A DNA stretch of 64,000 nt. It comes from an uncultured Gemmatimonadales bacterium. GTDB lineage: Bacteria; Gemmatimonadota; Gemmatimonadetes; Longimicrobiales; RSA9. Positions within the stretch are counted from its first letter, which is position 1. The number at the start of each line of letters is the position of its first letter. A program made the position numbers and the translations under genes. The notes under the pieces were generated by a model. The model searched no databases. It had not been told where the DNA came from and was given only the letters and a program-made list of their open reading frames with translations. The stretch lies in assembly GCA_963783305.1 (NCBI GenBank), contig CAWAMW010000006.1, forward strand, positions 1 to 64,000, written 5' to 3'. Of this stretch, positions 6,751-49,310 are shown one piece after another.

Positions 6751-6762
6751 GAACAAGGTCAG

Positions 6763-7882: not shown

Positions 7883-7933
7883 GCGTTCGTCTCCGAGGTA
7901 GCCTGCCGGTCCTGCAGCCGTACGGACTGACGC

Positions 7934-8149: not shown

Positions 8150-8395
8150 CTCTTCCCCGTTCGTTGTGTGGATCTCCAGGCCGTCCGGGCCCGGTGACCG
8201 GCTCTCTGGCAGGTACGCCATCCCGCCCCTGGCGTCAACCCCTCCACGTGCGCGCGGCTGGACCCGCCGAGGAGTTCGGCGTGCCGCCCTCGAACCCGCT
8301 ACCAGGTGATGGTTCTGGCCGTTCTCCATCAGCGGGAGGACGTTGGTCCGTGGTCCCAGCAGGAGGGGCGATCGTAGCCGGATCGCCCGCTGGCG

Positions 8396-11287: not shown

Positions 11288-11497
11288 AGCAGACCAGCGG
11301 TTGCGAGTCGGGTCCCGACGGACGTGGCGGCGGCTTGGTGACCGGCGACGTGCTTCCCCGCGCGTCGAGAATGGACGCAGATTAAGCGGGTTCGGGCGCA
11401 TCGGAAAGGCCCGCGGGTTCGCCCTCACGGACGGGGTGCAACTACGACGTGCGAGCGAGGGCACCGGCCCGGCCTGACCGGCGTCCGCGGTTCGGAC

Positions 11498-26932: not shown

Positions 26933-27279
26933 GTCGCCTCCTCAGCCCATGACTTCCAGACCGACCTTATGGATCCCCCCCCGACCACTGCTCGCGAAGG
27001 TAGTGCACCGGCGGGGCAGGGACCACGAGACGCTATCGCCGGCTGTGGTAGTACTCCCTACTCCACCGGGGGCGGGCGGGCGGGAGGGCAGGGCGCGAAG
27101 TGGCGGCTTTCGAGGGAGTAGAAGATCCTTCCATTCGTCGGGGCCGATGGTTTACTATGGGACCGCATCCCGCCTCGGGCGGGAGCGCACTTCTGGCGTC
27201 GCCGGGCCCCCCCTCGCGCACGCGCCGAGCTCGGGCCGTCCGGGCGCCGGAGCCCCCCTCTTCGACCGGAGGCTTCCTC

Positions 27280-29159: not shown

Positions 29160-31324
29160 GAGCCCGTCCCGTTGGCACCCCACTCCTCGTCGTCGGGCTG
29201 ACGCTCGTGGCTCCCGCGCCCGGATCGGGTCAGAACGTCGAGGCGGAACAGGCAAGCGCCTACGGCGCAGCCCGGGCCGCCACCGCCCGGGCCATGGAGA
29301 TCCTCGAGAGCCGCGGCCTCGAGGCGGCGATTCCGGAGCTCTGGTTCGCCCGCGCCGAATGCCCGGAGGGCGATTACGGCGTGGCTTGTCGTCGCATCAC
29401 GACCTACGCCCTCGGCTACGCCCACCAGACGGCAGCCGCGAGCCGGCCCGCCGAGCGGGAGAAGTTGCTCCGCGACGCCATCGCGTACTTCGAGGACGTT
29501 CGGGCCGAGAACCCGGGCTTCGAGCCCGCCGGGCACGCCCTGGCCCTCGCCTACCGCCAGCTGGGATCCGCCACCAAGGAGGCGGGGATGTTCGCCGCAC
29601 CGGGCGTGGTCGACACGTTGGCGATCGCGCTCGCCGGTGTCCGCGAGGACTCCCTGACACGCGAGCTGACCCGCCTCGCCGATGCCGACTCCACTGGACG
29701 CTACGCGCTCCTCCTCGGCGACCACCTCCGCGACCGGCAGGCGTGGACCCGGGCCCGCAATGCGTACCTCCGGGCCAGCGCCCTCGACCCGGCAGCCATG
29801 GAGCCCCGCCAGAAGCTGCTGACGCTGTACCGGAGGGGACGGCTGCCCATCGAGGAGCTGGCGCCCCGGCTCGCTCAGTGGGAGCTGCGCTCCCCCGAGC
29901 TGGCCGCGGAGGGCTACATCCTGTCCATGCGGGAGATCTATCCGACCGACCCCGGGCGCGCCGCCGAGGCGCTCCCGCGCTGGCTCGAGACCCAACGCAG
30001 CCTCGACCTGCTCGGGCCCGGGCTGGTGGAGCAGGTGCCCGAGGACTGGGGCGCCCGCCCCTTCGCCGGACTGCGCGCGTTCCTCCTGGACCCCGTGGGA
30101 TCGGAAATCCCGGCATGGTGGCTCGAGACGGAGCCGCGCCGGGAGTCCCTGGCGCGGCTCGCCCGCGGCCTCGGCGAGTGGCGCGTCGCGGACGGGGCGT
30201 CCCTTGAAGCGATCCAGGTCTGGCAGAGAGGTCGAGACATCGCGCCCCCGGGCTCACCCGCGTGGATCGATCTGACCGCCGACCTGGCCCGGATCCTGGA
30301 CCAGTCCCCCGAGCTCGACCCCGACGGGCGGCAGTTCGCTCTCCTCGAGCGAGAGCTCTTCGATAACAAGGGCGGCGCCATCATCAGCCGGGATTACGCC
30401 GCGATGAGGCGGTTCCACGCCACCCTCGGGACCATCTACGCCCGTCGCGGCCAGTGGGGCAGCAGTGGCGGGGCCCGAGGCGCCATCTTCCAGCTCAGCC
30501 ACGCCATAGAGGCGGCCGGGGCCAGGGAGCGGGAGACCGGCATCCACGAGCCGCTGCCGGAGCTCCGCCGGCTGCTCGCCGAGGCCTTCCGGGCCACGGA
30601 CCAGGACCGGCGCGCCGCCACCGCCTATCTCCAGGCCGCCCAGGACCACCTGGAGGTCGGGGGGCTGGACGCCGCTCGCGAGCTGCTCTCCAACGGCACG
30701 CGCCTCGGAAGCGATTCGGAGATCGCTGCTCGCGCGGGTCGCCTCACCCGCTGGCTGGAGTGGCGGGAGCAGGTGAACCGCGCTGTCACCAGCCGGGAGG
30801 GGTGCTCCGCGGCTCTCCTCGACGCGGTCGTCGCGGACCGCCGCGAGTTCATGGGCACCGACGACGACGTGGCCACGCGCGAGCGCTTCCGCGTCCTCAC
30901 CGCCTGCGGCTCGCTCGGAGGGCGCGCGGCGAGCGCCCTCCACGCCGCCGCGCTGGACGAGCTGCTCGGCGACCCGGTGCCGCTGGTCGGCATCGCGGAC
31001 CTCACCCGACTGGAGGACGCCGTCGCGGCCGTCTACCGCGCCTTCGGGCAGCGCCCCCCGCCGCTGGACGTCTCCGCCAGCCCGGGTGCCGGCGGCGCCG
31101 TAGTTCCGCTGTTCCTGGACGGGCGCGGGCTCTTCATCGCCACGGGTCCCGCACCGCTCACCGCCGCCCGGGTCGTCCGGGCGCTTCGGCCCGCGGACAA
31201 CCGGCTCCGCCTCCACATCGACGGCCGGGACGTCCGGATCCTCGATCCCGGGGCGCTGGGCCGGGAGGAGGTCACCCGGCGACTGCGGGCGGTGGTCGGC
31301 GTCGGGACGGTCTCGGGCTCATGA
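29156..31324 (+). CDS. Secreted TPR-like helical protein
   Basis: Signal peptide; repeated helical pairs (AIAYFEDV..LALAYRQLG; LGDHL..ARNAY.RA..LDP). Confidence 0.75.
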   Translation: MRARPVGTPLLVVGLTLVAPAPGSGQNVEAEQASAYGAARAATARAMEILESRGLEAAIPELWFARAECPEGDYGVACRRITTYALGYAHQTAAASRPAEREKLLRDAIAYFEDVRAENPGFEPAGHALALAYRQLGSATKEAGMFAAPGVVDTLAIALAGVREDSLTRELTRLADADSTGRYALLLGDHLRDRQAWTRARNAYLRASALDPAAMEPRQKLLTLYRRGRLPIEELAPRLAQWELRSPELAAEGYILSMREIYPTDPGRAAEALPRWLETQRSLDLLGPGLVEQVPEDWGARPFAGLRAFLLDPVGSEIPAWWLETEPRRESLARLARGLGEWRVADGASLEAIQVWQRGRDIAPPGSPAWIDLTADLARILDQSPELDPDGRQFALLERELFDNKGGAIISRDYAAMRRFHATLGTIYARRGQWGSSGGARGAIFQLSHAIEAAGARERETGIHEPLPELRRLLAEAFRATDQDRRAATAYLQAAQDHLEVGGLDAARELLSNGTRLGSDSEIAARAGRLTRWLEWREQVNRAVTSREGCSAALLDAVVADRREFMGTDDDVATRERFRVLTACGSLGGRAASALHAAALDELLGDPVPLVGIADLTRLEDAVAAVYRAFGQRPPPLDVSASPGAGGAVVPLFLDGRGLFIATGPAPLTAARVVRALRPADNRLRLHIDGRDVRILDPGALGREEVTRRLRAVVGVGTVSGS

Positions 31325-32753: not shown

Positions 32754-33983
32754 TCACCCCCGCCCCCAGTAGTCGGGCTCCCGCAACAGCCGTCCGAAGC
32801 GCGCCATGGAGAGGGCGGGCAGTACCGCTGCGAGAGCGAGCAGTGCCGCCATCGGTGCGAGCGCGGTCCGCGGCGGCGCGCCCACAACGAGCTGCCCCGT
32901 CTGGACGCGGAGGTAATGGGTGAGGGGGAGCGCCGCAGACCACACCCGGGCGACAGCCGGCATGCCGGACAGCGGGAACGTGATGCCGGAGAACGCGAAC
33001 GCCGGGACCGCCAGCAGGCTTGCGAGACTGGTGGAGAGGCGGAGGTTGGCCGTCCACCCCACCAGCACCAGCGCCACGCCGAGGACGGCCAGGACCATGA
33101 GCACCAGCGCGCCCGCCAGCAGCGACGCGCTCCCCCGGATCGGCATCCCCAGGGCGTGGTACGTGGCGGCGCTGAGCCCGATGCCGAGCGCGGCGTACCA
33201 CGCGGCGTACGGCGCCAGCTTGCCCACGAGGGCCGGCCCCACGCGCCCATCGGCGGCCTCGAGCCAGGAATGGGCGCTGCTCTGCCGGAGCTCGCTGCCC
33301 AGGGCGTGGATGACCAGGAGCAGGGCGAAGATCTGGAGGAGTGCGGGGACCAGGGCGGTCACCAGGAACGCGGCGTAGTCCAGCTCTGGATTGAAGAGGG
33401 GGTGGGCCTCGATGCGAATCGGGTCGGTGGCCGGCTGGGCCCGCGCTCCCCCCAGGGCCAGCCGGGACCGGACTTCCAGCTCAGCGGACGCTGCACCGAC
33501 CGTTGCAGACAGTGCCCGGGCGATGAGCTTCCCCGGCAGCAGCCACTGTGCGTTGTAGTACCCGACGACCGGCGGGCCCTGTCCCCGGTTGGCGTCCCTT
33601 TCGAGGCCCGCGGGCAGCACCACGACCGCGTACACGTCCCCCTCCAGCATGTGCGCTTCTCCGTCGGCCGGGGTGGACGGGGTCGCCGCCACGCGCATGA
33701 CGCTGGTGGCGTCCATGGACCGGGTCAGCCGCCGCGACAGGTGCGTTCGGTCCAGATCCACCACGGCCACAGGCAGGTCCTGGGGCGTCCGGGACCCGAA
33801 CGCGCTCATGAGGACTCCCCACGCGGCCAGCGGCAACACCAGGAGGAGCAGGGGATAGAGCGGGCGCGAGCCCATGCGCGCCAGCTCCCGCCGGACCACG
33901 CGTCCGGTGCCGGGCCGCCATGCCTCGAACCCTCCGCGCGAGCCGGCATCGAGCCGGGCCTCCCGCCAGTCCCGGGTTGACAC
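32754..33983 (-). CDS. ABC-2 type permease
   Basis: LPVAVVDLD...SRRL.R..DAT, LFNP.LDY..FL, FAFSGITFP..MP. Confidence 0.85.
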   Translation of the reverse strand: MSTRDWREARLDAGSRGGFEAWRPGTGRVVRRELARMGSRPLYPLLLLVLPLAAWGVLMSAFGSRTPQDLPVAVVDLDRTHLSRRLTRSMDATSVMRVAATPSTPADGEAHMLEGDVYAVVVLPAGLERDANRGQGPPVVGYYNAQWLLPGKLIARALSATVGAASAELEVRSRLALGGARAQPATDPIRIEAHPLFNPELDYAAFLVTALVPALLQIFALLLVIHALGSELRQSSAHSWLEAADGRVGPALVGKLAPYAAWYAALGIGLSAATYHALGMPIRGSASLLAGALVLMVLAVLGVALVLVGWTANLRLSTSLASLLAVPAFAFSGITFPLSGMPAVARVWSAALPLTHYLRVQTGQLVVGAPPRTALAPMAALLALAAVLPALSMARFGRLLREPDYWGRG

Positions 33984-33986
33984 CGG

Positions 33987-35003
33987 CTACCGGTCCTCGA
34001 CCCCATGGGCGGCGATCAGGACGCTCATCCCCGGCCGGAGTCCCGCCATCGGGTGGATCGGACGCGCCCGCACCTCGAAGGTGCGGAGGTCGAAGCCGCC
34101 CGATCCACGCGTCGAGCGCCAGGTGGCGAAATCGCCCATGGCGGCGATGTAGGACACTTCGAGATCCACCGCCCCGCCGCCGAGCGCCGGCACGGTGCCA
34201 CGCATCGTCTCGCCCATCCGTACGCCGGCGAGCCGGTCCTCGCGCAGGTGGAACGTGACCCACGCGTCCGACAGGTCGATCACCGCCACCACGGGCATTC
34301 CGGGGCCCACCAGCTCGCCGGGCTCCACCACACGCTCCGTCACCTCGCCCGCCAATGGAGAGACCAGCCTCATCTCATCCAGGTAGGCCTGCACTTCCGC
34401 TCGGCCGCCCTCCGCCTGACGGACCAGCGCGCCGGCCGCCGCACGATCCTCGCGCCGCGCCCCGGCCCGCGCCATCTCGTACGCCGCGCCCGCCGCCTCC
34501 GCCGCCGACCGGCTCGTGGCCAGCCGGGTCTCCGCCTCATCCCGCTTCTGCGCCGGCAGCACACCCTCGTCATAGAGCGCCTGGACCCGGTCCAGTGTGG
34601 TGGCCGCCAGCCGGGCCGCCTCCCGCGCCCGCTCCCACTGGGCGCGCGCCGCCCGGACCTCCTCCGTTCGGGCGCCGCTCCGCGCCTTGGCTTCCTGCGC
34701 TCTCGCCGCATCCAGCGACGCGTCGGCCTGCGTGGCCTTCGCCTCGATCTCCGGGCTCCGGAGCACCGCCACTTCCTGGCCGGCCTCCACCCGGTCGCCC
34801 TCATGGACCAGCAGGGCGTCGATCCGGCCCGGCACCTTCGCCGATACCGTCACCTGCCGCGCCTCCACCTGACCCTGGATCGGCGCGGGCTCCCGCCGCG
34901 TCGCCCACCACGCCAGCCCCAGCACCGCCGCCAGCACGATCCCCAGCCCCAGCGCCACCGCACCGCGCACCATCTTCTCCCGCTTCTCCGTCCCGTCGCT
35001 CAT
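33987..35003 (-). CDS. HlyD-family periplasmic adaptor
   Basis: N-terminal TM, lipoyl half-motif (KVPGRI..L.V.EGD.V..GQ), coiled coil, GDFATWRST..FDLRTFEV. Confidence 0.9.
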   Translation of the reverse strand: MSDGTEKREKMVRGAVALGLGIVLAAVLGLAWWATRREPAPIQGQVEARQVTVSAKVPGRIDALLVHEGDRVEAGQEVAVLRSPEIEAKATQADASLDAARAQEAKARSGARTEEVRAARAQWERAREAARLAATTLDRVQALYDEGVLPAQKRDEAETRLATSRSAAEAAGAAYEMARAGARREDRAAAGALVRQAEGGRAEVQAYLDEMRLVSPLAGEVTERVVEPGELVGPGMPVVAVIDLSDAWVTFHLREDRLAGVRMGETMRGTVPALGGGAVDLEVSYIAAMGDFATWRSTRGSGGFDLRTFEVRARPIHPMAGLRPGMSVLIAAHGVEDR

Positions 35004-36583
35004 CGTCCCGCTTCCTCTCCGTACCGCTGCTCGGTCCCATCCCCCGGCGCAACAGACGCTGCGCCTGCCGGTTCGGCGGCCGTTCCGCCTGCCGTTTTGC
35101 CTGCCGTTTCGTCCGCGGTCGCGCCCATCAGTGCCGGGAGCCGATCCGTCTCGCCCGCCGCCGCCAGGAGCCGTACCAGCGCCACATCGGCGTCATAGAG
35201 CGCTTTCTGCCGCCCCAGCCGAACCCGCGAGAGCGCCGCCTCGGCGTCCACCACGTCCAGCGACGTGGCGAGTCCGGCGCCGAACGCCACCTCCTGCGCT
35301 CTGAGACTTTCCTCCGCCAGCTCACGCGTCGCGTCGAGCTCGATCAGCCGGTCCCGGGCCTCCTGCAGCTCCCGGTACCGACGCTCCACCAGCAGCGCCA
35401 CGTCCTGCCGACCCCGGGACACGCGCAGCCCGACCTCCTCGGCCCGCGCCCGGGCCGCACGTAGCCCCTGCCACCGCCGACCCCCCGCCAGCACTGGAAC
35501 CCGGACCGCCACGCCCACGGCCCAGGCGGGCTCCAGGATCGTCAGCTCGTCCGGCAGGAGCTCCCGCATCCCGAACAGGGCCACGCTCGGGAGGAGCTCT
35601 CCCCGGGCCGCCCGAACCCCGGCCTCGGCCTGCTGACGACCGGCCTCGGCCCGGGCGAGCGCCGGATTCGCCTCCTGCGCTCGGGCACGCCACTCCGCCA
35701 ACGAGCCCACCCCTTCTGGGAGGAAGAGAGGCGTGGACGCCGTGACCGGGCCGTCCACCGACAGCGTGCTGGCCAGCGCGGCACGCGCCAGCGACCGGTC
35801 GCGCTCCGCGGCCAGCAGCGCCCGCGATGCCTCGGCTGCCGCCACCTCGGCGCGCAACCGCTCCGCCCGCGCGACCTGGCCGTGGGTCTCCAGCAGGCGC
35901 GCCCGCTCCGCGTGCCCCGACAGGCTCCGCGCCGCCTCCGCCCGCGCCGCAACCGCCGCCTCCGCCAGCCGGAGCCCGAAATACCGCTCCGTCAGCTCCA
36001 CCGTCACCCCGTCCAGCGCCGACCGCCGCTCGGCTTCCGCGGCCCGGGTGGCCGCACCCGCCGCCCGGACACCCGCCACCCTGCGACCTCCGGTGAACAG
36101 CGGGACCGTGGCCTCCAGCGTCATCCGGTCGAATCGCTCACCCTGGATCTGCGCGACGAATGGCGGCACCGCTTCCGCCGGCACCCCCGGATGCAGCCCC
36201 ACCATCGCCCCTCGGATGGGCGCCAGATCCATTACCATCGGACCGTCCACCCGCGTGTGCCGCCCCGTTACCTCCACTTCGGGCAGGAACCGACCCCACG
36301 CCGCCAGCCGCTCCGCCTCCGCTCGACGCACCGCCGCACTCGCCGCACCCACCCGCTCGTGCTCACCCCGGACCCGCTCGAACGCCGACCGGAACGTCAC
36401 CGATGTCACCGACGGGACCGACGCGGGAACACCACGGACCGGCCCCGTGGACTGCGCGCCCACCGGCCGACCGAGTGCCAGGGCAGCAGCCAGCACCGTC
36501 AGCCACGCGACCCGGATCGCGCCACGCTCCCCCGGCAGCCCAGCGCCCTCGCCCCCACGTTCCCTCTCCCTCCTCCGCCCCAT
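35000..36583 (-). CDS. TolC-family outer membrane efflux protein
   Basis: PLFTGG, Y..L..A..., F.AGL.TSLDVVDAE; two OEP-like repeats. Confidence 0.85.
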   Translation of the reverse strand: MGRRRERERGGEGAGLPGERGAIRVAWLTVLAAALALGRPVGAQSTGPVRGVPASVPSVTSVTFRSAFERVRGEHERVGAASAAVRRAEAERLAAWGRFLPEVEVTGRHTRVDGPMVMDLAPIRGAMVGLHPGVPAEAVPPFVAQIQGERFDRMTLEATVPLFTGGRRVAGVRAAGAATRAAEAERRSALDGVTVELTERYFGLRLAEAAVAARAEAARSLSGHAERARLLETHGQVARAERLRAEVAAAEASRALLAAERDRSLARAALASTLSVDGPVTASTPLFLPEGVGSLAEWRARAQEANPALARAEAGRQQAEAGVRAARGELLPSVALFGMRELLPDELTILEPAWAVGVAVRVPVLAGGRRWQGLRAARARAEEVGLRVSRGRQDVALLVERRYRELQEARDRLIELDATRELAEESLRAQEVAFGAGLATSLDVVDAEAALSRVRLGRQKALYDADVALVRLLAAAGETDRLPALMGATADETAGKTAGGTAAEPAGAASVAPGDGTEQRYGEEAGR

Positions 36584-36604
36584 TCCGCTTCCTCCCCACC
36601 CGTT

Positions 36605-36626
36605 TTATTGAAGTACCACTCAACAA
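36605..36626. promoter_or_regulatory. Candidate TetR operator 1
   Basis: TTATTGAA-GTACC-ACTCAACAA, imperfect palindrome in the tolC/tetR divergent region; repeated at 37522. Confidence 0.6.
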
Positions 36627-36723
36627 TTAGTGGCGGGCGCTCCGACTGTCAATGGAGGGACCCGGTTGGCGGGGGGGGCGGGGAGACATAGCTTCAACGG
36701 GCACACCTTGACGGGAGAGGGAC

Positions 36724-37377
36724 ATGGCGGATGCTGACCAAGGATCAGGGGGGGCGGAGCCGCGCTGGCGGCGCCGGAAGGATGCGCGGCCGCAGGAGCT
36801 GACGGCGGCGGCGCTGGATCTGTTCGTCCGGCAGGGGTTCGCGGCCACGCGAGTGGAGGACATCGCGCGGCAGGCGGGGGTCACACAGGGCACGATCTAC
36901 GTGTACTTCGAGAGCAAGGAATCGTTGCTCAAGGAGGTGGTCTACGAGTCCATGGTGCCGGTCCTGGCCTACGCCAACCGCCGGCTGGAGGCGTACGAGG
37001 GGACGGCGCGCGGCCTCTTTCGGGAGCTGGTACACGGCTGGTGGGAGCGGGTCGGCGAGTCACGCTTCGCGGGCGTACCCAGGCTGATCGTGGCGGAAGC
37101 CTCCCAGTTTCCCGACCTGGCGGCCTTCTACATGGAAGAGGTGGTGGAGCGCAGCCGCGGCATCTTCGGCCGCGTCCTCACCATGGGCATCGACCGTGGC
37201 GAGTTCCGTCCCCTGGATGTCGCACACGCAGCCCGCCTCGCCATGGCGCCCCTCCAGCACGCCGCCATCCACCAGTACTCGCTCCAGCCCTTCGACCCCA
37301 CGCCCTACGACATCCAGGCGTACCTGGACCTCCACATCGAGATCTTCCTCGACGGCATAGCCGCCCCCAAGCCCTGA
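36724..37377 (+). CDS. TetR/AcrR-family regulator
   Basis: AALDLF...GFAATRVEDIA..AGVT.GTIY.YF.SKE.L. Confidence 0.95.
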   Translation: MADADQGSGGAEPRWRRRKDARPQELTAAALDLFVRQGFAATRVEDIARQAGVTQGTIYVYFESKESLLKEVVYESMVPVLAYANRRLEAYEGTARGLFRELVHGWWERVGESRFAGVPRLIVAEASQFPDLAAFYMEEVVERSRGIFGRVLTMGIDRGEFRPLDVAHAARLAMAPLQHAAIHQYSLQPFDPTPYDIQAYLDLHIEIFLDGIAAPKP

Positions 37378-38073: not shown

Positions 38074-39975
38074 CTACTCCGGCAGGACCCCGATCCGGAG
38101 CCGGGATGGGTGCTCCTTGGAGAAGTACACCCGCTGGGTGGCCGATACGAACGGGGCGCGGCTGTCGAGGTCGTACGGGTTGTCCACGTAGATGTGCGGG
38201 TTGATGTCGACCAGGGGGAACCAGGTGCTCTGGACCTGGACCATGATCCGGTGGCCCTTCCGGAAGGTGTGGAGCACGTCCTGAAGCGGCACGTCCACCC
38301 GCGTCACCTCCCCCGACCGGAACGGTTCCGGCTTGCTGGGTCCGTTCCGGTACCGGCCCCGGATCACGTCGCTCCGGACCATCATCTGATAGCCGCCGGT
38401 TCGGAACCCGGCCCGGTCCTCGGCGGCTGGCGAGTCCGGTGCATCGCCCGGGAACTCGTCGATGACCTTCACCACCCAGTCGCTGGCGGTCCCGGAGGTG
38501 GAGACGAAGAGCTCGGCGACGATGGGCCCGGCCAGCGTCACGTCATCCTCCAGCACGTCGGTCCGGTAGACCGCCACGTCCGGCCGCCGGGCGGCGAACC
38601 GCTGGTCCTCCGTCATGTACTCCCGGTTCATGCCGAGGGCGATCTCCCGGGTGTGGGGAACCGGTGTGGCGGGGTCGCTCGTCCACTCGTCGAAGGGGGA
38701 GCCGACGGGCGACCCGACGGCGGGGCCGGACCACGAGAGCGAGCCGCCCTCCCCAAGGTACAGCGAGCGCGGCTCCACGGCGGCTGGGGCCCACTCGGCG
38801 AATCGACGCCACTCGTTCCGGCCGGTGTCGAACATGGTGGCCTCCGCCAGCCCCGGGGCGGGCGCGTTCGCCAGGTGATGGCGGAACCAGGGGAGCTCGA
38901 TGCTGTCCTGGTAGAACTCCGACGTCCGCTGCCGGAACCAGGCGTCGCCCAGGCGGTCGCCGTCCGTCCGGGACCAGCCGCCGTGGACCCACGGCCCTTC
39001 CACGATCCGGGTGTCGGACGACGGGTCCAGCCCCTCGATCGCGCGGTAGATGGCCAGCGGGCCGTACAGGTCCTCGGCGTCGTACCAGCCGCCCACCACC
39101 AGGACGGCGGGGGCCACGTTGCGCAGGTGCGGCAGCAGGTTGCGCCGCTGCCAGAATTCGTCGTAATGGGGGTGGGCGATGATGGAATCCCAGAACGGGA
39201 CGCGGTGGCGGTACCACTCGTCGTTGATGTTCCCGAGGGGGCCGAGGTCGCGGGCTAACGCGTAGCCGTCGTCGGTGCCGTAGTCGAGCCGCTCGGGCCA
39301 CTCCGTGGTGGGCTCCGGGCGCGGCTGGCCGAAGGACCAGAAGAAGCCGAAGAAGTGCGAGAGGAAGAAGGCGCCGTTGTGGTGGAAGTCGTCGTACCAC
39401 CAGTCGGCGATGGGGGCCTGCGGTGACACCGCCCGGAGCGCAGGGTGGGCGTCGATCATTCCGGCGGCGCTGTAGAAGCCAGGGTAGGAGATCCCCCACT
39501 GGCCGACCCGTCCGTTGTGGCCGTCGACGTGGTCGAGCAGCCACTCGATGGTGTCGTAGGTGTCGGTGCTCTCATCGATGTCCGCCGGGCCGTCCTTCAC
39601 CGCGACGTGGGGCGTCATGTTGACGAAGTCGCCCTGGCTCATCATCCGGCCGCGCACGTCCTGATAGACGAAGATCCAGCCGAGGCGGGTGAAGGCGCCG
39701 TTCGGCCCCAGTGGCGCCCGGAACGCGTCCTCGCCGTATGGGGCGACGCTGTACGGAGTGCGGAAGAGCAGGATGGGGACCGGGCCGGCCGCGTCCTTCG
39801 GGGTGTAGATCGCGGTGAAGAGCTCCACGCCGTCCCGCATGGGGATGTGGACCTCCCGCTTCTCGTAATGGTCGCGGACGTACTCCGCGTCCACCTCCTG
39901 CGCGGCCAGGGGCGCGCCGGGGAGGACGAGCAGCAGGACGACCCGGGCGGCCCGGGCGAGCAGGCGGCGGTGCAT
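38074..39975 (-). CDS. CocE/NonD-family hydrolase
   Basis: IPMRDGV.L, RTPY, QDVRG...S.G, GISYPGF, VGGWYDAED, GPW.HG; signal peptide. Confidence 0.95.
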   Translation of the reverse strand: MHRRLLARAARVVLLLVLPGAPLAAQEVDAEYVRDHYEKREVHIPMRDGVELFTAIYTPKDAAGPVPILLFRTPYSVAPYGEDAFRAPLGPNGAFTRLGWIFVYQDVRGRMMSQGDFVNMTPHVAVKDGPADIDESTDTYDTIEWLLDHVDGHNGRVGQWGISYPGFYSAAGMIDAHPALRAVSPQAPIADWWYDDFHHNGAFFLSHFFGFFWSFGQPRPEPTTEWPERLDYGTDDGYALARDLGPLGNINDEWYRHRVPFWDSIIAHPHYDEFWQRRNLLPHLRNVAPAVLVVGGWYDAEDLYGPLAIYRAIEGLDPSSDTRIVEGPWVHGGWSRTDGDRLGDAWFRQRTSEFYQDSIELPWFRHHLANAPAPGLAEATMFDTGRNEWRRFAEWAPAAVEPRSLYLGEGGSLSWSGPAVGSPVGSPFDEWTSDPATPVPHTREIALGMNREYMTEDQRFAARRPDVAVYRTDVLEDDVTLAGPIVAELFVSTSGTASDWVVKVIDEFPGDAPDSPAAEDRAGFRTGGYQMMVRSDVIRGRYRNGPSKPEPFRSGEVTRVDVPLQDVLHTFRKGHRIMVQVQSTWFPLVDINPHIYVDNPYDLDSRAPFVSATQRVYFSKEHPSRLRIGVLPE

Positions 39976-40246
39976 GGCGATCTCCAGGAATGTCGGCCGG
40001 GGCTCCAGGCGCGGAAGGTGGGGGCGGGGCTGGAGCGCGGCAAGGGGATCCGCCGGGTTCCGCGCGTCTGACACCACGATGGCAGTCCGGGCGTGGCGGC
40101 GCCCCTGCGCCGGATATCCATTGATGTCCGCCTGCCCGGCACGTAAATAGGAGCAGCGCCCGTCCGTCACCCCCGGCCCCTCGCCCCGGACGGTCGCCTC
40201 ATGCAACCCCCCCGAGGGAGGGGCGGCCGCCCTGAAGGGAGCCCCC

Positions 40247-42391
40247 ATGCTCCAGGCACCCGTCATCCTCGACGCAGACATGTCCGTCATCGCGGCGCTG
40301 GGCCGCCTGCGGAGCTATCCCGGCCACGCGCTCGTGGTGGTCCGGCGACAGCGGGATCTCGAGATCTTCTTCCACGTCTTTACGGTCGAGGCCCTCCAGG
40401 AGGAGCTGAGGGCGGGAGCGCCCGCTCGGGGATCGACAGACACCGTTGGGCGCGTCCTGGGCCTGGACCTGCGACCGGCCTCTCCCACACGACAGCTCGA
40501 GGACGGCGACGCATCCGACGCGACGTTCGGCGGTGTGCTCCTGGACGGGTTGGCGATTCTCGGGGTCGTCCGGCCCGATGTGATCGCCCGGACCCGCGCG
40601 GCGGCCCCGCGGGTCCCCGAGGAGGCCGTCGGGCGGGGCGGGGGCTTCCTGGCCCGAATGGGGGGAGGGCTGGGGCACCGCCGGACCCGCGGCCGCGCCC
40701 CGGAGGCCGTGCCCCCTGGCATGACCGGGGACGGCGAGGCGCTGGGGGAGCTCGAGTCTACGCGCGCATGGACCGGCGAGGTCGCGCTCCCGTCTTCCAC
40801 GCTGGAGGAGGAAAGCGTCGCCGAACCCGCGGCCGCGCCGATGCGGCGGTTCGAGGCCCACCCCCGCCTGGAGCTGGAGCACGACGTGGTGGAGCCCGGC
40901 CAGCGGTTCGAGCTGACCGTCGGCCTCGCGCGGGAAGCGGTGCAGGGGGTGAGCGGAAGCCTGATCACGGCGTCGATCCCGTCGAACGCCCGTCACCTCG
41001 ACCTGGACGTGCAGGTCGTCGCCGACGAGTTCCAGGCGCCCGCCGGCTGGTACTTTCGCCTACGGGTACCCGTGGATGCGCCGGAATCGGCGCAGATCGC
41101 CGTTCCACTGGTGGCTCCGGAAGGCGAAGTCACCCGTCAGACGCTCCTGGAAGTGCACTTCTCGCACGCCGGGGCTCCCGCGGGGGTGGCGTTCCGGCGG
41201 ATCGGCGTCCGAGCGGCGGCTGTCCCGTCGGTCCCTGGGGCCGGGGAGCCGTGGCTCCGCCCTACGGCGGCGCCGGCGATTCTCATCGATCCGGCCGATC
41301 CGCCGCCTGACCTATGGATCACCATCTCGAAGCCCGACGGCAACGAGGCGACGGGGCGGTTCCTGTGGAGCTTCCAGTCGCCGCACGACATCGAGCTGCC
41401 CCGGAGCCCTCTGCCCATGGACCTGGGGCACGACGCGCCGACCTTCGCCGCCCGGATCGTGCGGCTCGTGACGGAGAACGAGGGGTCGGAGCTCATTGAC
41501 GAGGCGCTGGTGGGGCTGGGCCGCCAGATCGCGGAGAAGGCCCCGGCGGAGCTCGGCCTCGTGCTGAGCCGCCTCCGGGCGGCCATCCCGGCTTCCGACC
41601 GCGCGCCGACGATCCTGCTCCAGAGCGCGGAAGCCCACGTGCCGTGGGAGCTTGCACTTCTCGACGATCCGCCGGATCCGACCCTGCCGCCACTCCTGGG
41701 AGCCCAGTTCGCCGTCGGCCGCTGGCTCCTCGGGCCCCGGACCGTGCGGATCCCGCCCGCCCGGGAGGTGGTGGTGCGGTCCATGGTGGTCGTGGCCGGC
41801 GACTACAAGAGCAGTCGGCGGCTCCGGCTCCTGCCCCAGGCCGAAGCCGAGGGCGACGCACTGGTGGCGCGGTACGGCGCGGCCCGGATGGCCGCCACCG
41901 CGCCGGAGCTGAACCGGCTCCTGGCCGGCGACTCGCAGGCCATCCACTTCGCCTGCCACGGCGAGGTCGACCCGGGGGACCCCGCCACCGGCCGGATCTT
42001 CCTCGACGACGACCAGCCACTGGACCCCATCCACTTCCTCCAGGCGGAGGTGGGGCGGCGTCATCAGCCGTTCCTCTTCCTGAACGCCTGCCAGGTGGGC
42101 CAGGCCGGTGAGCTCCTGGGCGACTATGCCGGGTTCGCCGGCAGCTGCCTGCGCAATGCGTTCCGCGGCTTCATCGCGCCACTCTGGTCCGTGGACGATG
42201 AGATCGCCCACACCATCGCGCTGGAGTTCTACGAGTCCGCTTTCGGAGACGAGCACCGGGACCCGATCCCCGTGGGCGAGGTGCTGCGGCGGATCCGGGC
42301 GCGGTTCCCCCGCAACGACTCCGTCGCCCCCTCCACGTGGCTGGCGTACGTCTTCTACGGGAATCCCAACCTCATCCTGCGGAGGGCTTGA
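40247..42391 (+). CDS. CHAT-domain (caspase-like) protease with long N-terminal region
   Basis: VPWEL, HFACHG, FLNACQVG, APLWSVDD, YVFYGNP. Confidence 0.9.
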   Translation: MLQAPVILDADMSVIAALGRLRSYPGHALVVVRRQRDLEIFFHVFTVEALQEELRAGAPARGSTDTVGRVLGLDLRPASPTRQLEDGDASDATFGGVLLDGLAILGVVRPDVIARTRAAAPRVPEEAVGRGGGFLARMGGGLGHRRTRGRAPEAVPPGMTGDGEALGELESTRAWTGEVALPSSTLEEESVAEPAAAPMRRFEAHPRLELEHDVVEPGQRFELTVGLAREAVQGVSGSLITASIPSNARHLDLDVQVVADEFQAPAGWYFRLRVPVDAPESAQIAVPLVAPEGEVTRQTLLEVHFSHAGAPAGVAFRRIGVRAAAVPSVPGAGEPWLRPTAAPAILIDPADPPPDLWITISKPDGNEATGRFLWSFQSPHDIELPRSPLPMDLGHDAPTFAARIVRLVTENEGSELIDEALVGLGRQIAEKAPAELGLVLSRLRAAIPASDRAPTILLQSAEAHVPWELALLDDPPDPTLPPLLGAQFAVGRWLLGPRTVRIPPAREVVVRSMVVVAGDYKSSRRLRLLPQAEAEGDALVARYGAARMAATAPELNRLLAGDSQAIHFACHGEVDPGDPATGRIFLDDDQPLDPIHFLQAEVGRRHQPFLFLNACQVGQAGELLGDYAGFAGSCLRNAFRGFIAPLWSVDDEIAHTIALEFYESAFGDEHRDPIPVGEVLRRIRARFPRNDSVAPSTWLAYVFYGNPNLILRRA

Positions 42392-43896
42392 TGGACCGCT
42401 TCGACCTCCATGGCGGCGGCCGACCGGTCGATATCGGCGCGGGCTACGTCCTCCGGGCACCGGGGCTGGCAGGCGTGGGCGAGGTGTTCACGCCCCGACC
42501 GGGCCGAGCCGTAAGTCGCGCTGCCGCCCCCGCGACGCCGGAGTTGGAGGCGGCGTTCGCGAGTACGGACGTGGAGGAGGCCGCCACCATCGCGCTGGAG
42601 GTCCAATCCACCGCCCCGCCGGCCGGCGAGACGACGCTGCGATCGGCGGCGGGTCAGGAAGCGCTGGAGCTGGAGGTTCCCGACCTGGGTCCCGCGCGCG
42701 GGCAGATGATCCTCTCCATAGGCGAGAACGGGGTGGCCACCTGGCACTTCCCGGAGCCCGTTGCCGGACGCGGGACCGGCACCAGCAGGGGGGGAGGCCC
42801 GACGCGTCGGTTCCTGATCCCCAGCGAGCCGGTCCCGCCGCCGACCGCACCGGCCACGCACCGGGGCTTCGTCGGCGCCATTGGCCGGAAGCTCCTCAAG
42901 GTGCTGGTCTACCCGGTGACCGACGACCTGATCGGTGCGGCCGGGAACGCGTTCGCGGCCAGGTGGGAGGCCGGGCACCGTCCCTATCGGGTCCGCCGGT
43001 TCGCTCCCGAGAGCTACACGAGCCCGGACGTGCCCGACCTGGAGCCGGATGACTGGCGTGGCCTGGCGGATGGACCGGCCCTCCTCTTCGTTCACGGCAC
43101 CTTCAGCACCTCCCACGGCGCGTTCGGGGGCCTCCCGCTGGCTCTCGTCCAGGAGCTCGATCGTCGCTACGACGGGCGAGTCATCGCTTTCGACGCTCAC
43201 ACCCTATCGGAGGATCCCGTCCGGAACGCCGCTACCTTCCTGGCCGCGATCCCCGCCGGCGCCTCGCTCGAGCTGGACGTGGTCTGCCACAGCCGTGGCG
43301 GGCTGGTGTCCCGGCAGCTGGCGGCGCAGCGGGAGGCCGGCGGCGGCACCGCCGAGGTGCGACGGGGCGTGTTCGTGGGCGTTCCCAATGCCGGCACCGC
43401 CCTGGCCGATCCGGACCACCTGATCCACATGATCGACCGCTTCACCACGGCGATGCTGCTGATCCCCGGTGGACCGGTGACGGAGATCATGGAGGGCGTG
43501 ATCACGGCCGTGAAGGTACTCGGTCACGGGGTGGTGGGCGGCCTGCCCGGGCTGGCGGCCATGCGGCCGGGCGGCGAGCTGCTCCGTGGCCTGGCCGGGG
43601 TCCCCACAACGGGCGAGTGGTATGCCATCACCGCCGATTACGAGCCGCCGGCGGACACCCTGGGGAGGCTGGTCCGGACCACCGCGGTCGACCTCGTCAT
43701 GGATCGGGTGTTCGGCAGCGATCCAAACGACCTGGTCGTCCCGACGACCGGCGTATTCGAGGCGGAGGGAGCGGCCGGGTTCCCCATCCCCGAGGGCCGG
43801 ATCCAACGATTCGGGGCCGCCGCCGGGGTCACGCACACAACCTATTTCTCGGCGCCCGAAACCGTTCGGGCTCTAGAGAACTGGCTGCGGGGCTGA
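42391..43896 (+). CDS. Alpha/beta-hydrolase (lipase/PGAP1-like) with N-terminal extension
   Basis: FVHGTFS, CHSRGGLV, PNAGT.LA, NDLVVPT, THTTYF; TGATG coupling; no signal peptide. Confidence 0.85.
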   Translation: MDRFDLHGGGRPVDIGAGYVLRAPGLAGVGEVFTPRPGRAVSRAAAPATPELEAAFASTDVEEAATIALEVQSTAPPAGETTLRSAAGQEALELEVPDLGPARGQMILSIGENGVATWHFPEPVAGRGTGTSRGGGPTRRFLIPSEPVPPPTAPATHRGFVGAIGRKLLKVLVYPVTDDLIGAAGNAFAARWEAGHRPYRVRRFAPESYTSPDVPDLEPDDWRGLADGPALLFVHGTFSTSHGAFGGLPLALVQELDRRYDGRVIAFDAHTLSEDPVRNAATFLAAIPAGASLELDVVCHSRGGLVSRQLAAQREAGGGTAEVRRGVFVGVPNAGTALADPDHLIHMIDRFTTAMLLIPGGPVTEIMEGVITAVKVLGHGVVGGLPGLAAMRPGGELLRGLAGVPTTGEWYAITADYEPPADTLGRLVRTTAVDLVMDRVFGSDPNDLVVPTTGVFEAEGAAGFPIPEGRIQRFGAAAGVTHTTYFSAPETVRALENWLRG

Positions 43897-43913
43897 CCCG
43901 CGGAGGAGGCTGG

Positions 43914-46034
43914 ATGGCCAGGAACTACGAAAACTTCGACCTCGAGATCCGGGGCGGCGATGACGGCTACACCGTTCACCTCGTCTCACCGGCGGGACGG
44001 GTGACCGCGCCGTTCCGGATCCCCCTCACGGACCAGGAGCTCAAGATCCTGGGGCTCACCGTGGCCCGGGGTCGGCGGACCCGCGCGCTGGCCAGCACCC
44101 GCGAGGTGGACGAGGTAAAGGCGTACGGTCAGCGTTTGTTCGACGGGCTGTTCACCGGAGATGTCCTGGGAAGCTACCAGGCCAGCCTCGGCGGCCTCCG
44201 GGCAGACCGACATACGGGTCTCCGGATCCGGCTCCGTCTCACCGACGCGCCCGAGCTCGCTCAGATCCCCTGGGAATACCTGTACGATGCACCCAATCGG
44301 CGATTCCTCGCCCTGGAGGACGAGACCCCCATCGTCCGCTATCTCGACCTGCCCCTGCCGACCGGGCCCCTCCGGGTCGAGCCCCCGCTCCGGATCCTGG
44401 TCATGATCGCCAGCCCCGGGGACATCCCGCCCCTCGATGTGGCCGAGGAGTGGGCCCGTCTCAACCAGGCGCTGGCCGACCTGGTCCGGGCCGGCCACGT
44501 CGAGCTGCACCGGCTCGATCACGCCACCGTGTCCGGCCTCCGCTGGAAGCTCAAGGAAGAGGAGTTCCACGTCTTCCACTTCATCGGGCACGGCGGCGTG
44601 GACGGCCCCACTGGCCGGGGCGTGCTCATCTTCGAGGACACCGAGGGCCGCTCCGACGCCGTGGACGCCGAGACCGTCGCCGGACTCCTGTCCGCCGAGC
44701 GCACGCTCCGGCTGGCGGTTCTCAACGCCTGCGAGGGAGGACGGGCCAGCGCTGGCGACATCTACGCCGGAACCGCCCAGACCCTCGTCCAGCGGGACGT
44801 CCCCGCCGTCATCGCCATGCAGTTCGAGATCAGCGACGAAGCCGCCATCGCCCTCACCCACGACTTCTACAAGGCCCTCTCCCTCGGTGACCCCGTGGAC
44901 GCCGCCCTCACGGAGGCCCGGCGCGGACTGCGGTGGGAGCAACGGAACGAGCTGGAATGGGGCACGCCCGTCCTCTACACCCGCGCCGCCGACGGCCGGC
45001 TGTTCGATGTCACCGGCGAGGCCCGGCCGCCGGACGCGTCGACCCTCCCACCCGCACAGCCCCCGTCGGAGGTGGTGGAGGCCAGCGCGCCGGGACAGCG
45101 GCCCGCCACTCCCGAAGATCGAGACCGGGCACGACGGATCGCCGGTCTGATCCACGAGAGCCAGCTCGCGGTCTACTCGGAGCGTTGGGGTGACGCGGCG
45201 GCGCTCCTCCAGGAAGTTCTCGACCTGGAGCCGGAGCACGGCGAAGCCATCAAGCGGCTGGCGGCGGTGCGCCGGGAGGAGCAGGTCGCTACCCTCTACC
45301 GCACCGCCGCCGACCACCAGCAGGCGGGAGACATTGCCGCCGCCGTGGCCGGATTCGAGCGGGTCCGGGATATCGATCCCGAGTACAGAGGGGTGACGCA
45401 GCACATAAAGCTGCTTCAGAAGGAGCAGAAGGCCGCCCTGTCGTCCCGCAGAGTCGACACCGGCGCCGCTGACCGGAACGAGCGATCGCCGGATCGCAGC
45501 CCCCGATCACGCGCCCCGCGGATCGCGGCGGGAGCGGCCCTGGTCGTTGCGGGCGGATTGGCGTTCAGCGCGTGGTACGGCGAGCCGAGCGTGGTGCCCG
45601 TGCCGGTGCACACCCCGGCCGTGGTCGAGCCAGAGGCGCCGGACGCCCCGGCCTACGAGCCCCCGTACGAGCCGGATCCGGCTCCGGCGACCGTGGCGAG
45701 TCCGATGAACCGGGACGCAGAGGCCCGCCAGCTGGGGCTGGTCCCGGCCGGGTCAGCCCTCACCGGCAGACTGGCCGAGGGTGGGGAGCAGGTCTACGAC
45801 CTCCCGCTCCAGGCGGGAAACACCTACGTGATAGCCGGCTCCTGCAATGGGGCGTGCGAGGACCTCGACCTGGCGATGAGCGAGGTCGGCAACGTCATCG
45901 CCGTGGACGACCAGCTCGATGCCGAGCCGGTGGTGACGCTGGTGGTACTGGTAACCGCCACGTATCAGCTTCACGTCACCATGCCGGGCTGCGCCGCCGG
46001 GAGCTGCGCCTACCGGGTCCAGCCGTACCGCTGA
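43914..46034 (+). CDS. CHAT protease - TPR - TM - extracytoplasmic beta-domain protein
   Basis: IPWEYL, HFIGHG, LNACEG, AMQFEISD; TPR-like helices; TM IAAGAALVVAGGLAFSAW; C-terminal PPC-like domain (C..AC.DLDL). Confidence 0.9.
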   Translation: MARNYENFDLEIRGGDDGYTVHLVSPAGRVTAPFRIPLTDQELKILGLTVARGRRTRALASTREVDEVKAYGQRLFDGLFTGDVLGSYQASLGGLRADRHTGLRIRLRLTDAPELAQIPWEYLYDAPNRRFLALEDETPIVRYLDLPLPTGPLRVEPPLRILVMIASPGDIPPLDVAEEWARLNQALADLVRAGHVELHRLDHATVSGLRWKLKEEEFHVFHFIGHGGVDGPTGRGVLIFEDTEGRSDAVDAETVAGLLSAERTLRLAVLNACEGGRASAGDIYAGTAQTLVQRDVPAVIAMQFEISDEAAIALTHDFYKALSLGDPVDAALTEARRGLRWEQRNELEWGTPVLYTRAADGRLFDVTGEARPPDASTLPPAQPPSEVVEASAPGQRPATPEDRDRARRIAGLIHESQLAVYSERWGDAAALLQEVLDLEPEHGEAIKRLAAVRREEQVATLYRTAADHQQAGDIAAAVAGFERVRDIDPEYRGVTQHIKLLQKEQKAALSSRRVDTGAADRNERSPDRSPRSRAPRIAAGAALVVAGGLAFSAWYGEPSVVPVPVHTPAVVEPEAPDAPAYEPPYEPDPAPATVASPMNRDAEARQLGLVPAGSALTGRLAEGGEQVYDLPLQAGNTYVIAGSCNGACEDLDLAMSEVGNVIAVDDQLDAEPVVTLVVLVTATYQLHVTMPGCAAGSCAYRVQPYR

Positions 46035-48152: not shown

Positions 48153-49310
48153 ATGAGCGACAGGAATCCATTCGAGTACGGGCGGGAGCTGGACCGTGCG
48201 GAGTTGGTGGACCGCGAGGCCGAGCTGACGGAGATCGCGCGCGTGATCCGGAACCGCGGGAAGCTGTTCCTCATAGGGCCGCGCCGGTTCGGCAAGACCT
48301 CGCTGCTGGCCGCGGCGGCGGCGGATGCGACCCGGGCGGGGACGGTGGTCCTCCGGTTCGATGCGGAGAAGTACGAGACGCTGCCGCTCCTGGCGGCGGC
48401 CATCCTGACGGCGGCGGTGCGGTCGCTCCAGGGGCCGGTAGAGAAGCTGGCCGGGATGCTGGCGCGGGCGGCGTCGCGGCTGCGGCCGACGGTGGAGGTG
48501 GACCCGCTGACGGGGGCGGTCTCGGTGGGGATTGGGGCGTCGTCATCGGAGTTGGGTGCGCTGCCGCTGCTGGCGGAGTCGCTGGACGCGGTGGAGGTGT
48601 TGGCGGCGGAGTCGGGTCGGGACGTGGTGGTGGTGCTGGACGAAGTGCAGCAGGTGGTGGTGGAGCACGGCGAGGCGGCGGAGCGGCAGCTGCGGGCGAC
48701 GGTGCAGGGGCATCGTCACGTGGGATACATCTTCGCCGGGTCGGCGACTCGCCTCCTGACGGCCATGACGACGGACGCGAACCGGCCCTTCTACCGGCTG
48801 GGCGCCATAACCTTCCTGGGCCCGGTCCCCGCGGCCGACTTCCTGGCCTTCCTGGACGAGGGCTTCCGCGCGAGCGGGTTCGCCGTTGCGGAGGGCGGAT
48901 GCGCCCGTATTCTCGAGCGCGCGGACGGGGTGCCGTACAACGTGCAGCGGCTGGCCCACGAGGCGTGGGAGATGCTGCGGGCGGGCGAGGTCTCGTCGCT
49001 GGAGCCGTCGGTGGTGGATCGTGCGGTGGAGCGCATCGTCGCCCGGGAGGACCCGGCGTACACGCAGCTGTGGACGTCGCTTACGACGAACCAGAAGAAG
49101 TCCCTGAAGGCGGCCATCGCGCTGGGAGGCACGGGGCTGCAGTCGGCCGAGGCCGGGCGGCGGTTCGACATCTCGCCGGCCAGTGTCCAGGTGGCGCTGG
49201 CGGCGCTGGAGGACCGACACCTGCTCCGGCGGGAAACGGACGCGGCCGGCCGCTACCGGCTGGTGGACCCGTTCCTGGCCGCCTGGCTCGCGGCGGCGCA
49301 GTCGGTATGA
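48153..49310 (+). CDS. AAA+ ATPase (archaeal-type, STAND-like) with C-terminal wHTH
   Basis: NPF.YG..LVDRE.E, GPRRFGKTS, VVVLDEVQ, FAGS, G.PY..Q.L, Y...DPF...W. Confidence 0.85.
   Translation: MSDRNPFEYGRELDRAELVDREAELTEIARVIRNRGKLFLIGPRRFGKTSLLAAAAADATRAGTVVLRFDAEKYETLPLLAAAILTAAVRSLQGPVEKLAGMLARAASRLRPTVEVDPLTGAVSVGIGASSSELGALPLLAESLDAVEVLAAESGRDVVVVLDEVQQVVVEHGEAAERQLRATVQGHRHVGYIFAGSATRLLTAMTTDANRPFYRLGAITFLGPVPAADFLAFLDEGFRASGFAVAEGGCARILERADGVPYNVQRLAHEAWEMLRAGEVSSLEPSVVDRAVERIVAREDPAYTQLWTSLTTNQKKSLKAAIALGGTGLQSAEAGRRFDISPASVQVALAALEDRHLLRRETDAAGRYRLVDPFLAAWLAAAQSV

Follow-up and report, generated by a model that had tools for sequence, protein, structure and literature searches.

Protease-gated death effectors are emerging as a main logic of bacterial immunity. 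The closest described counterpart of the system considered here is a caspase–hydrolase pair from Lysobacter capsici AZ78 (Evans et al., bioRxiv 2025.11.14.688446), in which, according to the available parts of the preprint, the protease LcCaspase cuts the neighbouring alpha/beta-hydrolase LcHydrolase at R73 and R117. Both cuts fall between Arg and Gly, and both sites are conserved in 161 homologues. LcHydrolase is a zymogen, and its N- and C-terminal fragments, when co-expressed, kill Escherichia coli. The same parts of the text place the caspase–hydrolase pair among the most abundant protease-gated modules and describe a caspase-like protease that protects against phage without a dedicated effector. 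A locus of comparable logic is present in a 64,000-nucleotide (nt) stretch of DNA, called the window below, from an uncultured Gemmatimonadales bacterium (contig CAWAMW010000006.1, positions 1 to 64,000). Its three genes, named A, B and C (Table 1), encode a TCAD7-CHAT protease, a long-form DUF7379 alpha/beta-hydrolase and a CHAT protein with a predicted membrane anchor. In the reading favoured here, which is held tentatively at a probability of roughly 0.45, A and B constitute a protease and its latent hydrolase. A would switch B on by cutting it after R133 and R158, TCAD7 would act as the sensor, C would be an accessory, and the module would serve in biological conflict.

A pairing of this kind was also described by Kaur et al. 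2020 (eLife, PMC7159879), where the caspase on VMAP of the vWA-MoxR ternary systems is always accompanied by a neighbouring alpha/beta-hydrolase gene. This pairing is computational and predicted for conflict systems, and the available text says only that the two 'operate together'. The locus shares with these systems the TCAD7 domain of A, whose Pfam name ('ternary complex associated domain 7') points to the same study. It differs from them in that the caspase is not fused to VMAP and in that the pair has either no further partner or a membrane CHAT. Pfam named no vWA, MoxR or VMAP gene among the 18 flanking open reading frames (ORFs) of the window or among the scanned neighbouring ORFs of related loci, and neither TCAD nor the hydrolase appears in two supplements of Kaur et al. 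No publication on this architecture came up in literature searches on TCAD7, on DUF7379 or on CHAT together with a hydrolase. As far as the available parts of Evans et al. and Kaur et al. go, the zymogen idea is partly anticipated in print; new relative to known protease–effector modules are the TCAD7-CHAT protease, the long-form DUF7379 protein and the membrane CHAT.

The core of the system is the pair of A and B, with C as an accessory that is common in Gemmatimonadota, because an A-like gene accompanies B far more regularly than a C-like gene does. Among metagenome contigs, of which the best 80 of 499 relatives were scanned, 55 loci have 1,500 nt or more of upstream sequence, and in 50 of them B is preceded by an A-like gene that ends at most 300 nt away; when 300 nt or more of upstream sequence is required instead, the count is 58 of 66. 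This gene order recurs much more often than chance would allow. Of the five exceptions, three are fusions (CHAT-C14-DUF7379 in L090, C14-DUF7379 in L096 and DUF7379-C14 in L102), and the remaining two, L097 and L101, have neither an A-like partner nor a fusion. TCAD7 was detected on 10 of 14 A-like proteins scanned. In contrast, only 7 of 48 loci from metagenomes show a C-like CHAT (tblastn) in the 1.2 kb that follow B. Pairwise distances of A and B are strongly correlated across 42 pairs (Mantel r 0.889, reached by none of 2,000 permutations), which shows co-inheritance as a unit and not by itself interaction.

Genome loci display a caspase-fold peptidase (CHAT, C14 or C11) beside DUF7379 or fused to it in 12 of 13 cases, and one locus, L022, has no such peptidase at its hydrolase. 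The same three genes as in the window recur in L003, while L017 combines C14, a hydrolase and CHAT-Big_2. C14-hydrolase fusions of about 1,170 residues are found in L018, L019, L020, L021 and L024; a C-type CHAT comes after three of them and stands opposite the one of L024. CHAT precedes the hydrolase in L023 and L027 (the CHAT match of L027 being just under the threshold), L025 reads hydrolase, CHAT, nSTAND1-WD40, L026 is a hydrolase-CHAT fusion, and L004, from Chloroflexia, reads C11, small ORF, hydrolase. The CHAT fused behind the hydrolase in L026 and in L028, the latter from the Ruegeria pomeroyi megaplasmid, is of the C type, and on plasmids, 7 of 9 tblastn matches fall within genes whose annotation is a CHAT protein. 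C-type CHATs adjoin the hydrolase or are fused to it in 8 of 12 related Gemmatimonadota loci, and several of those from this phylum carry a transmembrane (TM) segment followed by Big_2 or CHASE2. Further second CHAT genes were named by Pfam downstream in L037, L055 and L059 and upstream in L081, L088 and L095, where the protein is a CHAT-CHASE2.

The DUF7379-CHAT and C14-DUF7379 fusions (L018-L021, L024, L026, L028, L090, L096 and L102) belong to the same hydrolase family as B, and most of them keep its N-terminal domain. Five of six C14-hydrolase fusions retain this region with both Arg sites, aligned from B residue 6-18; the alignment begins at B residue 92 in L020, at 125 in L026 and within 1-18 in L102. 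The locus differs from the fusions in that its parts are split over three genes and that its upstream protease is of the TCAD7-CHAT type. A sequence-only reading of this DNA had proposed a coupled protease and hydrolase and had raised the question of whether the three-gene synteny recurs. The coupling holds, through adjacency, fusions in both orders and co-divergence. Of the synteny, the widespread A–B pair and the trio of L003 stand, but a C-like gene seldom follows B, and the trio was therefore rejected as the conserved unit in favour of the pair.

Protein B matches DUF7379 (PF24096) at residues 231-401 with 174.1 bits against a cut-off of 33. Its model has a mean predicted local distance difference test score (pLDDT) of 79.5. 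Confidence is low in the loops 126-129, 148-158 and 178-182, and the alpha/beta-hydrolase core begins at about residue 229. The catalytic triad is conserved in two independent sets of homologues: S301 is found in 46/47 and D447 and H482 in 47/47 sequences of the first, and each of the three in 66/66 of the second. Ahead of the core are two near-invariant Arg-Gly/Ser sites. R133 is kept in 43/47 and 65/66 sequences of the two sets and G134 in 44/47 and 58/66, while R158 is kept in 46/47 and 66/66 and residue 159 is Gly or Ser in 47/47 and 65/66. In the model, R133 and R158 fall at or beside the loops 126-129 and 148-158, between the N-terminal beta-domain and the core, and they are predicted to be candidate cut sites in flexible linkers. 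DUF7362 is annotated at the N-terminal domain in part of the B homologues, and Pfam at E up to 10 gave no match to this domain of B. A hydropathy scan found no hydrophobic N-terminus or TM segment in the protein. Foldseek returned bacterial lipases first (1cvl, 2es4, 1ex9, 4gxn and 5h6g, E about 1e-6), so that 'lipase' denotes a resemblance of fold and not a finding; a PDB sequence search and NCBIfam gave no match.

Relatives of B at E <= 1e-5 number more than 1,483 proteins, a lower bound from a search limited to 8,000 candidates, and occur in Gemmatimonadota, Acidobacteriota, Desulfobacterota, Pseudomonadota, Chloroflexota and Actinomycetota. The closest relative of B, from a Gemmatimonadota metagenome-assembled genome, shares 74% identity. 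Homologues of about 500 residues from several phyla (sources include Longimicrobiales, Deferrisomatales, Desulfobacterales, Vicinamibacteraceae, Bradyrhizobium and Thiobacillus) align with B over the full length, at 45-77% identity and from residue 1-6. In the public gene call (P0004), B has 396 residues, or 79% of the 501-residue query. The longer form is favoured because the homologues align from residue 1-6 and because of the TGATG junction, and the true start probably lies some 105 codons ahead of the deposited one.

Protein A has Pfam matches to TCAD7 at residues 2-101 (31 bits, cut-off 24) and to CHAT (PF12770) at residues 458-706 (48.2 bits, cut-off 24). It was modelled by AlphaFold2 with 34 homologues (pLDDT 82.5). 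Residues 1-118 form a compact unit in the model, with the order beta-alpha-beta-beta-alpha occurring twice. The nearest named language-model clusters of this piece in the Atlas are CBS, at a score of 0.90; the likeness fits the order of secondary structure and is nonetheless no more than a lead, since a CBS match came neither from Pfam nor from a PDB sequence search, the latter returning no match at all. Beyond the disordered linker, local Foldseek matches, some 130 columns long, to chains of complement C3 and cobra venom factor (3hrz_B, 3frp_G and 2qki_E, E about 2e-4 to 3e-4) probably belong to the beta-sandwich at 199-321, which would then be macroglobulin-like; this placement is ours, the matched model range not being printed. 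A small beta unit and three helices separate the beta-sandwich from CHAT in the model, and the middle of A, beta-sandwich included, had no Pfam match at E up to 10. For the C-terminal half, Foldseek placed the Csx29 TPR-CHAT of Craspase at the top (8eey_B, E 6e-11) and also returned separase, the anti-sigma factor DdvA and SAVED-CHAT, and the model thus resembles solved CHAT proteases of the caspase-haemoglobinase fold (Csx29, separase, SAVED-CHAT). The dyad H571/C615 is invariant in 34/34 A-type sequences. NCBIfam gave no match for A. In a relative of A from L092 (3701-5989), the linker that corresponds to the disordered one of A contains a long poly-glutamine run.

Protein C carries CHAT (PF12770) at residues 95-345 with 105.5 bits (cut-off 24), and its dyad H226/C273 is invariant in 10/10 C-type sequences. 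The segment equivalent to its predicted TM helix is also present in the orthologue of L003, which is 65% identical and keeps the four Cys of the tail of about 110 residues. The nearest Atlas clusters of this tail carry PPC (PF04151), with a score of 0.92 and 181 shared features, which again is only a lead; Pfam at E up to 10 gave no match to the tail. Since C has no signal peptide and one TM segment, its CHAT-TPR part is likely to be cytoplasmic and its tail periplasmic. With dyads and triad invariant or nearly so, A, B and C all look catalytically competent.

In the window, the base composition of which is about 70% G+C, the three genes are tightly packed. The TGA of A (42389-42391) overlaps the ATG of B (42391-42393), with GGAGGG 4 nt upstream of this ATG. 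The TGA of B (43894-43896) and the ATG of C (43914) are separated by a 17-nt gap containing GGAGGAGG, and both junctions carry Shine-Dalgarno motifs as read in the DNA. A promoter and terminator scan gave no sigma-70-like site and a single terminator-like site at chance level, and the source genome holds no CHAT, TCAD7 or DUF7379 gene beyond those of the trio. The structural observations of the sequence-only reading are confirmed by these data, namely three co-oriented genes with a TGATG overlap and a 17-nt gap, intact His/Cys dyads in both CHAT domains, a signal-less hydrolase with a triad, and a third gene that reads CHAT, TPR, TM and Cys-bearing tail, with the qualification that the TPR matches are below their cut-offs and the side of the tail is predicted.

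Table 1. Coordinates of the genes, domains and predicted sites of the locus (positions in the window; residues are those of the respective protein).
Feature	Position	Strand	Basis
Gene A, TCAD7-linker-beta-sandwich-helical-CHAT protease, 714 residues	40247..42391	+	ORF, Pfam, AlphaFold2 model
A 1-118, TCAD7 domain, predicted CBS-pair-like, possible ligand sensor	40247..40600	+	Pfam TCAD7, E 1.2e-8 on this piece; model
A 113-192, disordered, poorly conserved linker	40583..40822	+	pLDDT <50 at 113-155 and 157-192; length varies in alignment
A 199-321, beta-sandwich domain	40841..41209	+	Model: strands only
A 455-714, CHAT protease domain; His571 41957-41959, Cys615 42089-42091	41609..42388	+	Pfam CHAT; invariant dyad
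Gene B, beta-domain plus DUF7379 alpha/beta-hydrolase, 501 residues from the ATG inside TGATG	42391..43896	+	ORF, Pfam
B 1-145, N-terminal beta-rich domain, candidate pro-domain	42391..42825	+	Model strands 2-119, 138-144
B 133-158, two conserved Arg-Gly/Ser sites (R133-G134, R158-G159), predicted cleavage sites	42787..42864	+	Alignments, model loops
B 229-501, alpha/beta-hydrolase core; Ser301 43291-43293, Asp447 43729-43731, His482 43834-43836	43075..43893	+	Pfam, triad counts
Gene C, CHAT-TPR-TM-PPC-like membrane protease, 706 residues	43914..46034	+	ORF, Pfam, junction
C 95-345, CHAT domain; His226 44589-44591, Cys273 44730-44732	44196..44948	+	Pfam, dyad
C 417-491, TPR repeats	45162..45386	+	Several Pfam TPR models, all below their cut-offs
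C 537-555, single predicted TM helix	45522..45578	+	Kyte-Doolittle, mean 1.67 over 19 residues
C 600-706, Cys-containing beta-domain, predicted periplasmic, PPC-like	45711..46031	+	Conserved Cys; Atlas clusters

The likeness to the Lysobacter pair concerns gene neighbourhood, fold and, with a difference in placement, the candidate sites. In both systems, a conserved caspase-like protease gene stands beside a hydrolase gene, and both hydrolases resemble lipases, by fold or by HHpred. LcHydrolase has two conserved Arg-Gly cleavage sites; B has two conserved Arg-Gly/Ser motifs, candidates for such sites, at another position relative to the fold. Relatives are linked to WD40 and STAND sensors, and the same holds for L024, L025 and L038 here. 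The differences are equally clear. B carries an N-terminal beta-domain that LcHydrolase lacks, the protease is a 714-residue TCAD7-CHAT protein and not a short caspase with Cys129, and a second, membrane-anchored CHAT is present. No Lysobacter entry occurs among the 120 matches listed for B or among the 120 listed for shorter DUF7379 proteins.

The sequence of events that we infer, from trigger through cleavage and activation to substrate and biological role, is the following. A would be the dedicated protease of B. The CHAT domain of A would be freed or assembled on a trigger, which may be a ligand binding to the CBS-like TCAD7, and this domain would then cut B after R133 and R158, between the N-terminal beta-domain and the core. 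Cutting would release or rearrange the N-terminal domain of B and thereby render the Ser301 hydrolase active. The active enzyme might attack an ester or peptide substrate, possibly a membrane lipid, with the result that the cell is stopped or killed. C, anchored in the membrane with a PPC-like tail in the periplasm, may provide a second input from the envelope side, make a second cut or place the reaction at the membrane.

A role in conflict, such as an anti-phage response, is probable because of the patchy distribution of the module, its mobility, the defence genes beside three relatives and the nSTAND1 partners found among relatives. DUF7379 occurs in 12 of 401 sampled genomes of the phylum and in none of seven other genomes of the source's own family. 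In L103, rve_3 integrase genes lie at both ends of the A–B pair (950-2080 and 8694-9431), as in a cassette carried by insertion sequences. Flanks are heterogeneous from locus to locus, and defence neighbours were identified in L055 (AriA-like), L098 (PD-Lambda-5) and L028 (Septu). In the last of these, on the megaplasmid of R. pomeroyi DSS-3 (6590-13394), the hydrolase-CHAT fusion adjoins an IS5 transposase and immediately precedes genes that match PtuA (E 6e-47) and PtuB (E 1e-66).

Several observations weigh against this reading. B is likened to LcHydrolase by published description and not by sequence, so that it may be a homologue or an analogue. LcHydrolase has about 300 residues and is cut inside its fold, at R73 and R117, whereas B has 501 and carries R133 and R158 ahead of its core. 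In the available text of Evans et al., HHpred relates LcHydrolase to oligopeptidases as well as lipases and the substrate is left open; likewise, the lipase matches of B are only marginally ahead of esterases, thioesterases and dehalogenases. The CBS-like and PPC-like labels rest on language-model look-alikes at about 0.9, joined in part by the order of secondary structure. The metagenome sample over-represents B's own subfamily. Moreover, PADLOC has no model matching A or B, clear defence neighbours are present in only 3 of about 17 surveyed loci, and the neighbours of the trio in the window are housekeeping genes, with no defence match among the 18 flanking ORFs (Pfam, PADLOC). The sequence-only reading had called B a zymogen lipase; a zymogen is plausible, given the conserved Arg-Gly/Ser sites and the precedent of Evans et al., while the lipase part amounts to fold resemblance.

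The same reading had placed the proteins in a linear order of sensor protease, second protease and lipase. In such a cascade, the membrane protease C would sense an external signal and cut A, for example in its disordered linker, thereby freeing CHAT from TCAD7, after which A would cut the hydrolase. Protease cascades are known in type III CRISPR SAVED-CHAT systems, C is receptor-like in its predicted layout, with CHAT-TPR in the cytoplasm, a single TM segment and an outer domain rich in Cys, and A has a long disordered linker of 80 residues at 113-192, yet this linker is not conserved. Most A–B pairs are without a C-like gene, and a second CHAT on the same strand was not found in L066, L072, L075, L098, L103 and L107, which are 6 of the 14 loci with full flanks; A must therefore be activatable without C, and C is not an obligatory upstream step. 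In addition, the C-type CHAT is fused directly to the hydrolase in other genomes, which suggests that C acts on B rather than on A. The linear order was not borne out, and the cascade is unlikely.

In another view, the hydrolase is a helper and not the killer: it might trim peptides, or act on a small-molecule or acyl signal by processing or destroying it, while the protease would do the damage on host or invader proteins. Kaur et al. 2020 (PMC7159879) go no further, in the text available, than joint operation of the two, and the phage-protective protease without a dedicated effector and the oligopeptidase similarity of LcHydrolase in Evans et al. would both fit; besides, the alpha/beta-hydrolase fold does not fix a substrate. 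What speaks for an effector instead is that the fragments of LcHydrolase are toxic without the protease, according to the same partial source, and that B has conserved Arg-Gly/Ser linker sites, as expected of a substrate. The helper role appears improbable.

Regulated proteolysis might also serve signalling outside defence, by controlling a lipid or envelope-remodelling hydrolase on envelope or developmental cues. HetF is a CHAT protease acting in cyanobacterial cell division, and C gave a weak NCBIfam match to HetF, although its 92 bits are far below the cut-off of 1200; a match of C to TraC is likewise far below its own cut-off. The predicted periplasm-facing domain of C, the Big_2 or CHASE2 sensor domains of its relatives, the Ser/Thr kinases that flank C14-hydrolase fusions and the housekeeping surroundings in the window are all compatible with such a function. 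However, the patchy distribution within the phylum, with no occurrence in the other genomes of the family, and the heterogeneous flanks with integrases and some defence genes speak against it, and TCAD7 and nSTAND1 tie the module to conflict systems. A low probability is accordingly given to this alternative.

An extension of the favoured pairing would be a two-key death switch, in which the two Arg-Gly/Ser locks on B are served separately, one by A, a cytosolic protease with a CBS-like ligand sensor, on an internal signal, and the other by C, anchored in the membrane with a PPC-like sensor in the periplasm, on an envelope signal. To our knowledge, a proteolytic AND-gate of this type has not been described for any bacterial protease–effector module. 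If this were true, full activation of B would need both signals; it is a long shot. That the three genes are unrelated neighbours packed by chance deserves practically no credence, given their overlapping and 17-nt junctions with Shine-Dalgarno motifs and the same trio in L003, and for A and B it is refuted by synteny and by fusions in both orders.

Other described systems share single parts with the locus. Csx29/Csx30 of the type III-E Craspase is similar in that Csx29 is the best structural match of the C-terminal half of A and that a CHAT protease cuts, or in the case of A is predicted to cut, a dedicated neighbour; it is different in that the partner of A is an enzyme and not Csx30, and the identity in the structural alignments is 11-16%. 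Among the 18 flanking ORFs, Pfam named neither Cas7-11/gRAMP nor any other Cas protein, no search being aimed at Csx30 or CRISPR arrays. The CHAT domain of C matches SAVED-CHAT of CBASS and type III CRISPR (PDLC02016; PDB 8tl0). PADLOC reported SAVED_CHAT for C at E 1e-21 over profile positions 101-288 only, which is taken to be the CHAT part of the profile, as it overlaps the Pfam CHAT range of C. Neither A, B nor C has a SAVED domain in Pfam at E up to 0.1, and no cyclase was seen among the flanking ORFs. Finally, C has the layout 'N-terminal caspase plus TM' of the two-gene EACC1-caspase system (System 4 in the available text of Kaur et al. 2020), but in that system the 5' gene encodes the single-TM EACC1 domain, whereas C is preceded by B, a hydrolase without a TM segment and with DUF7379 as its only match.

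As for the surroundings of the trio, a defence island at this window, for which the sequence-only reading had suggested a test, was rejected: the flanks have no PADLOC match except a weak one to PDC-S27 (E 8e-7). It concerns a P-loop protein of the ATPase_2/AAA_16 type that carries a MarR-like winged helix at its C-terminus and is encoded at 48153-49310 (+), 2 kb downstream of the trio. Divergent from A is a gene for an S15 X-Pro dipeptidyl-peptidase at 38074-40290 (-), whose longest ORF overlaps the first 44 nt of A and whose true start is probably further inside. An S15 peptidase also lies upstream of the B homologue in L101, possibly by coincidence. Further away are a minus-strand efflux-type operon at 32754-37377 (an outer-membrane OEP, a HlyD-type adaptor and an ABC-2 permease) with a divergent TetR regulator, and two long plus-strand ORFs, 27052-28230 and 29108-31324 (392 and 738 residues), with coding-type G+C at third codon positions and no Pfam or PADLOC match.

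Among the relatives, five loci (L017-L020 and L024), mostly with C14-DUF7379 fusions, have genes for Ser/Thr protein kinases, frequently combined with TPR, beside the hydrolase, which hints at kinase control of this variant. In L017 (9128-10068), the match to the C-like CHAT is broken into two segments, 9128-9562 and 9664-10068, whose frames differ; this may reflect a frameshift or an assembly error. A giant form is encoded on a plasmid of Burkholderia sp. YI23 (L110, 4401-9974), where a hypothetical protein of 1,857 residues has a DUF7379-like region near its N-terminus.

In this locus, a widespread family is represented by a clean version whose parts are split over three genes. It offers explicit candidate cut sites in R133 and R158, a candidate ligand sensor in TCAD7 and an extra membrane protease that possibly ties the system to the envelope. 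Knowing the target of the hydrolase and the signal of each protease would fill the main gap left by Evans et al., and the same knowledge would test the parallel with eukaryotic caspase-activated enzymes.

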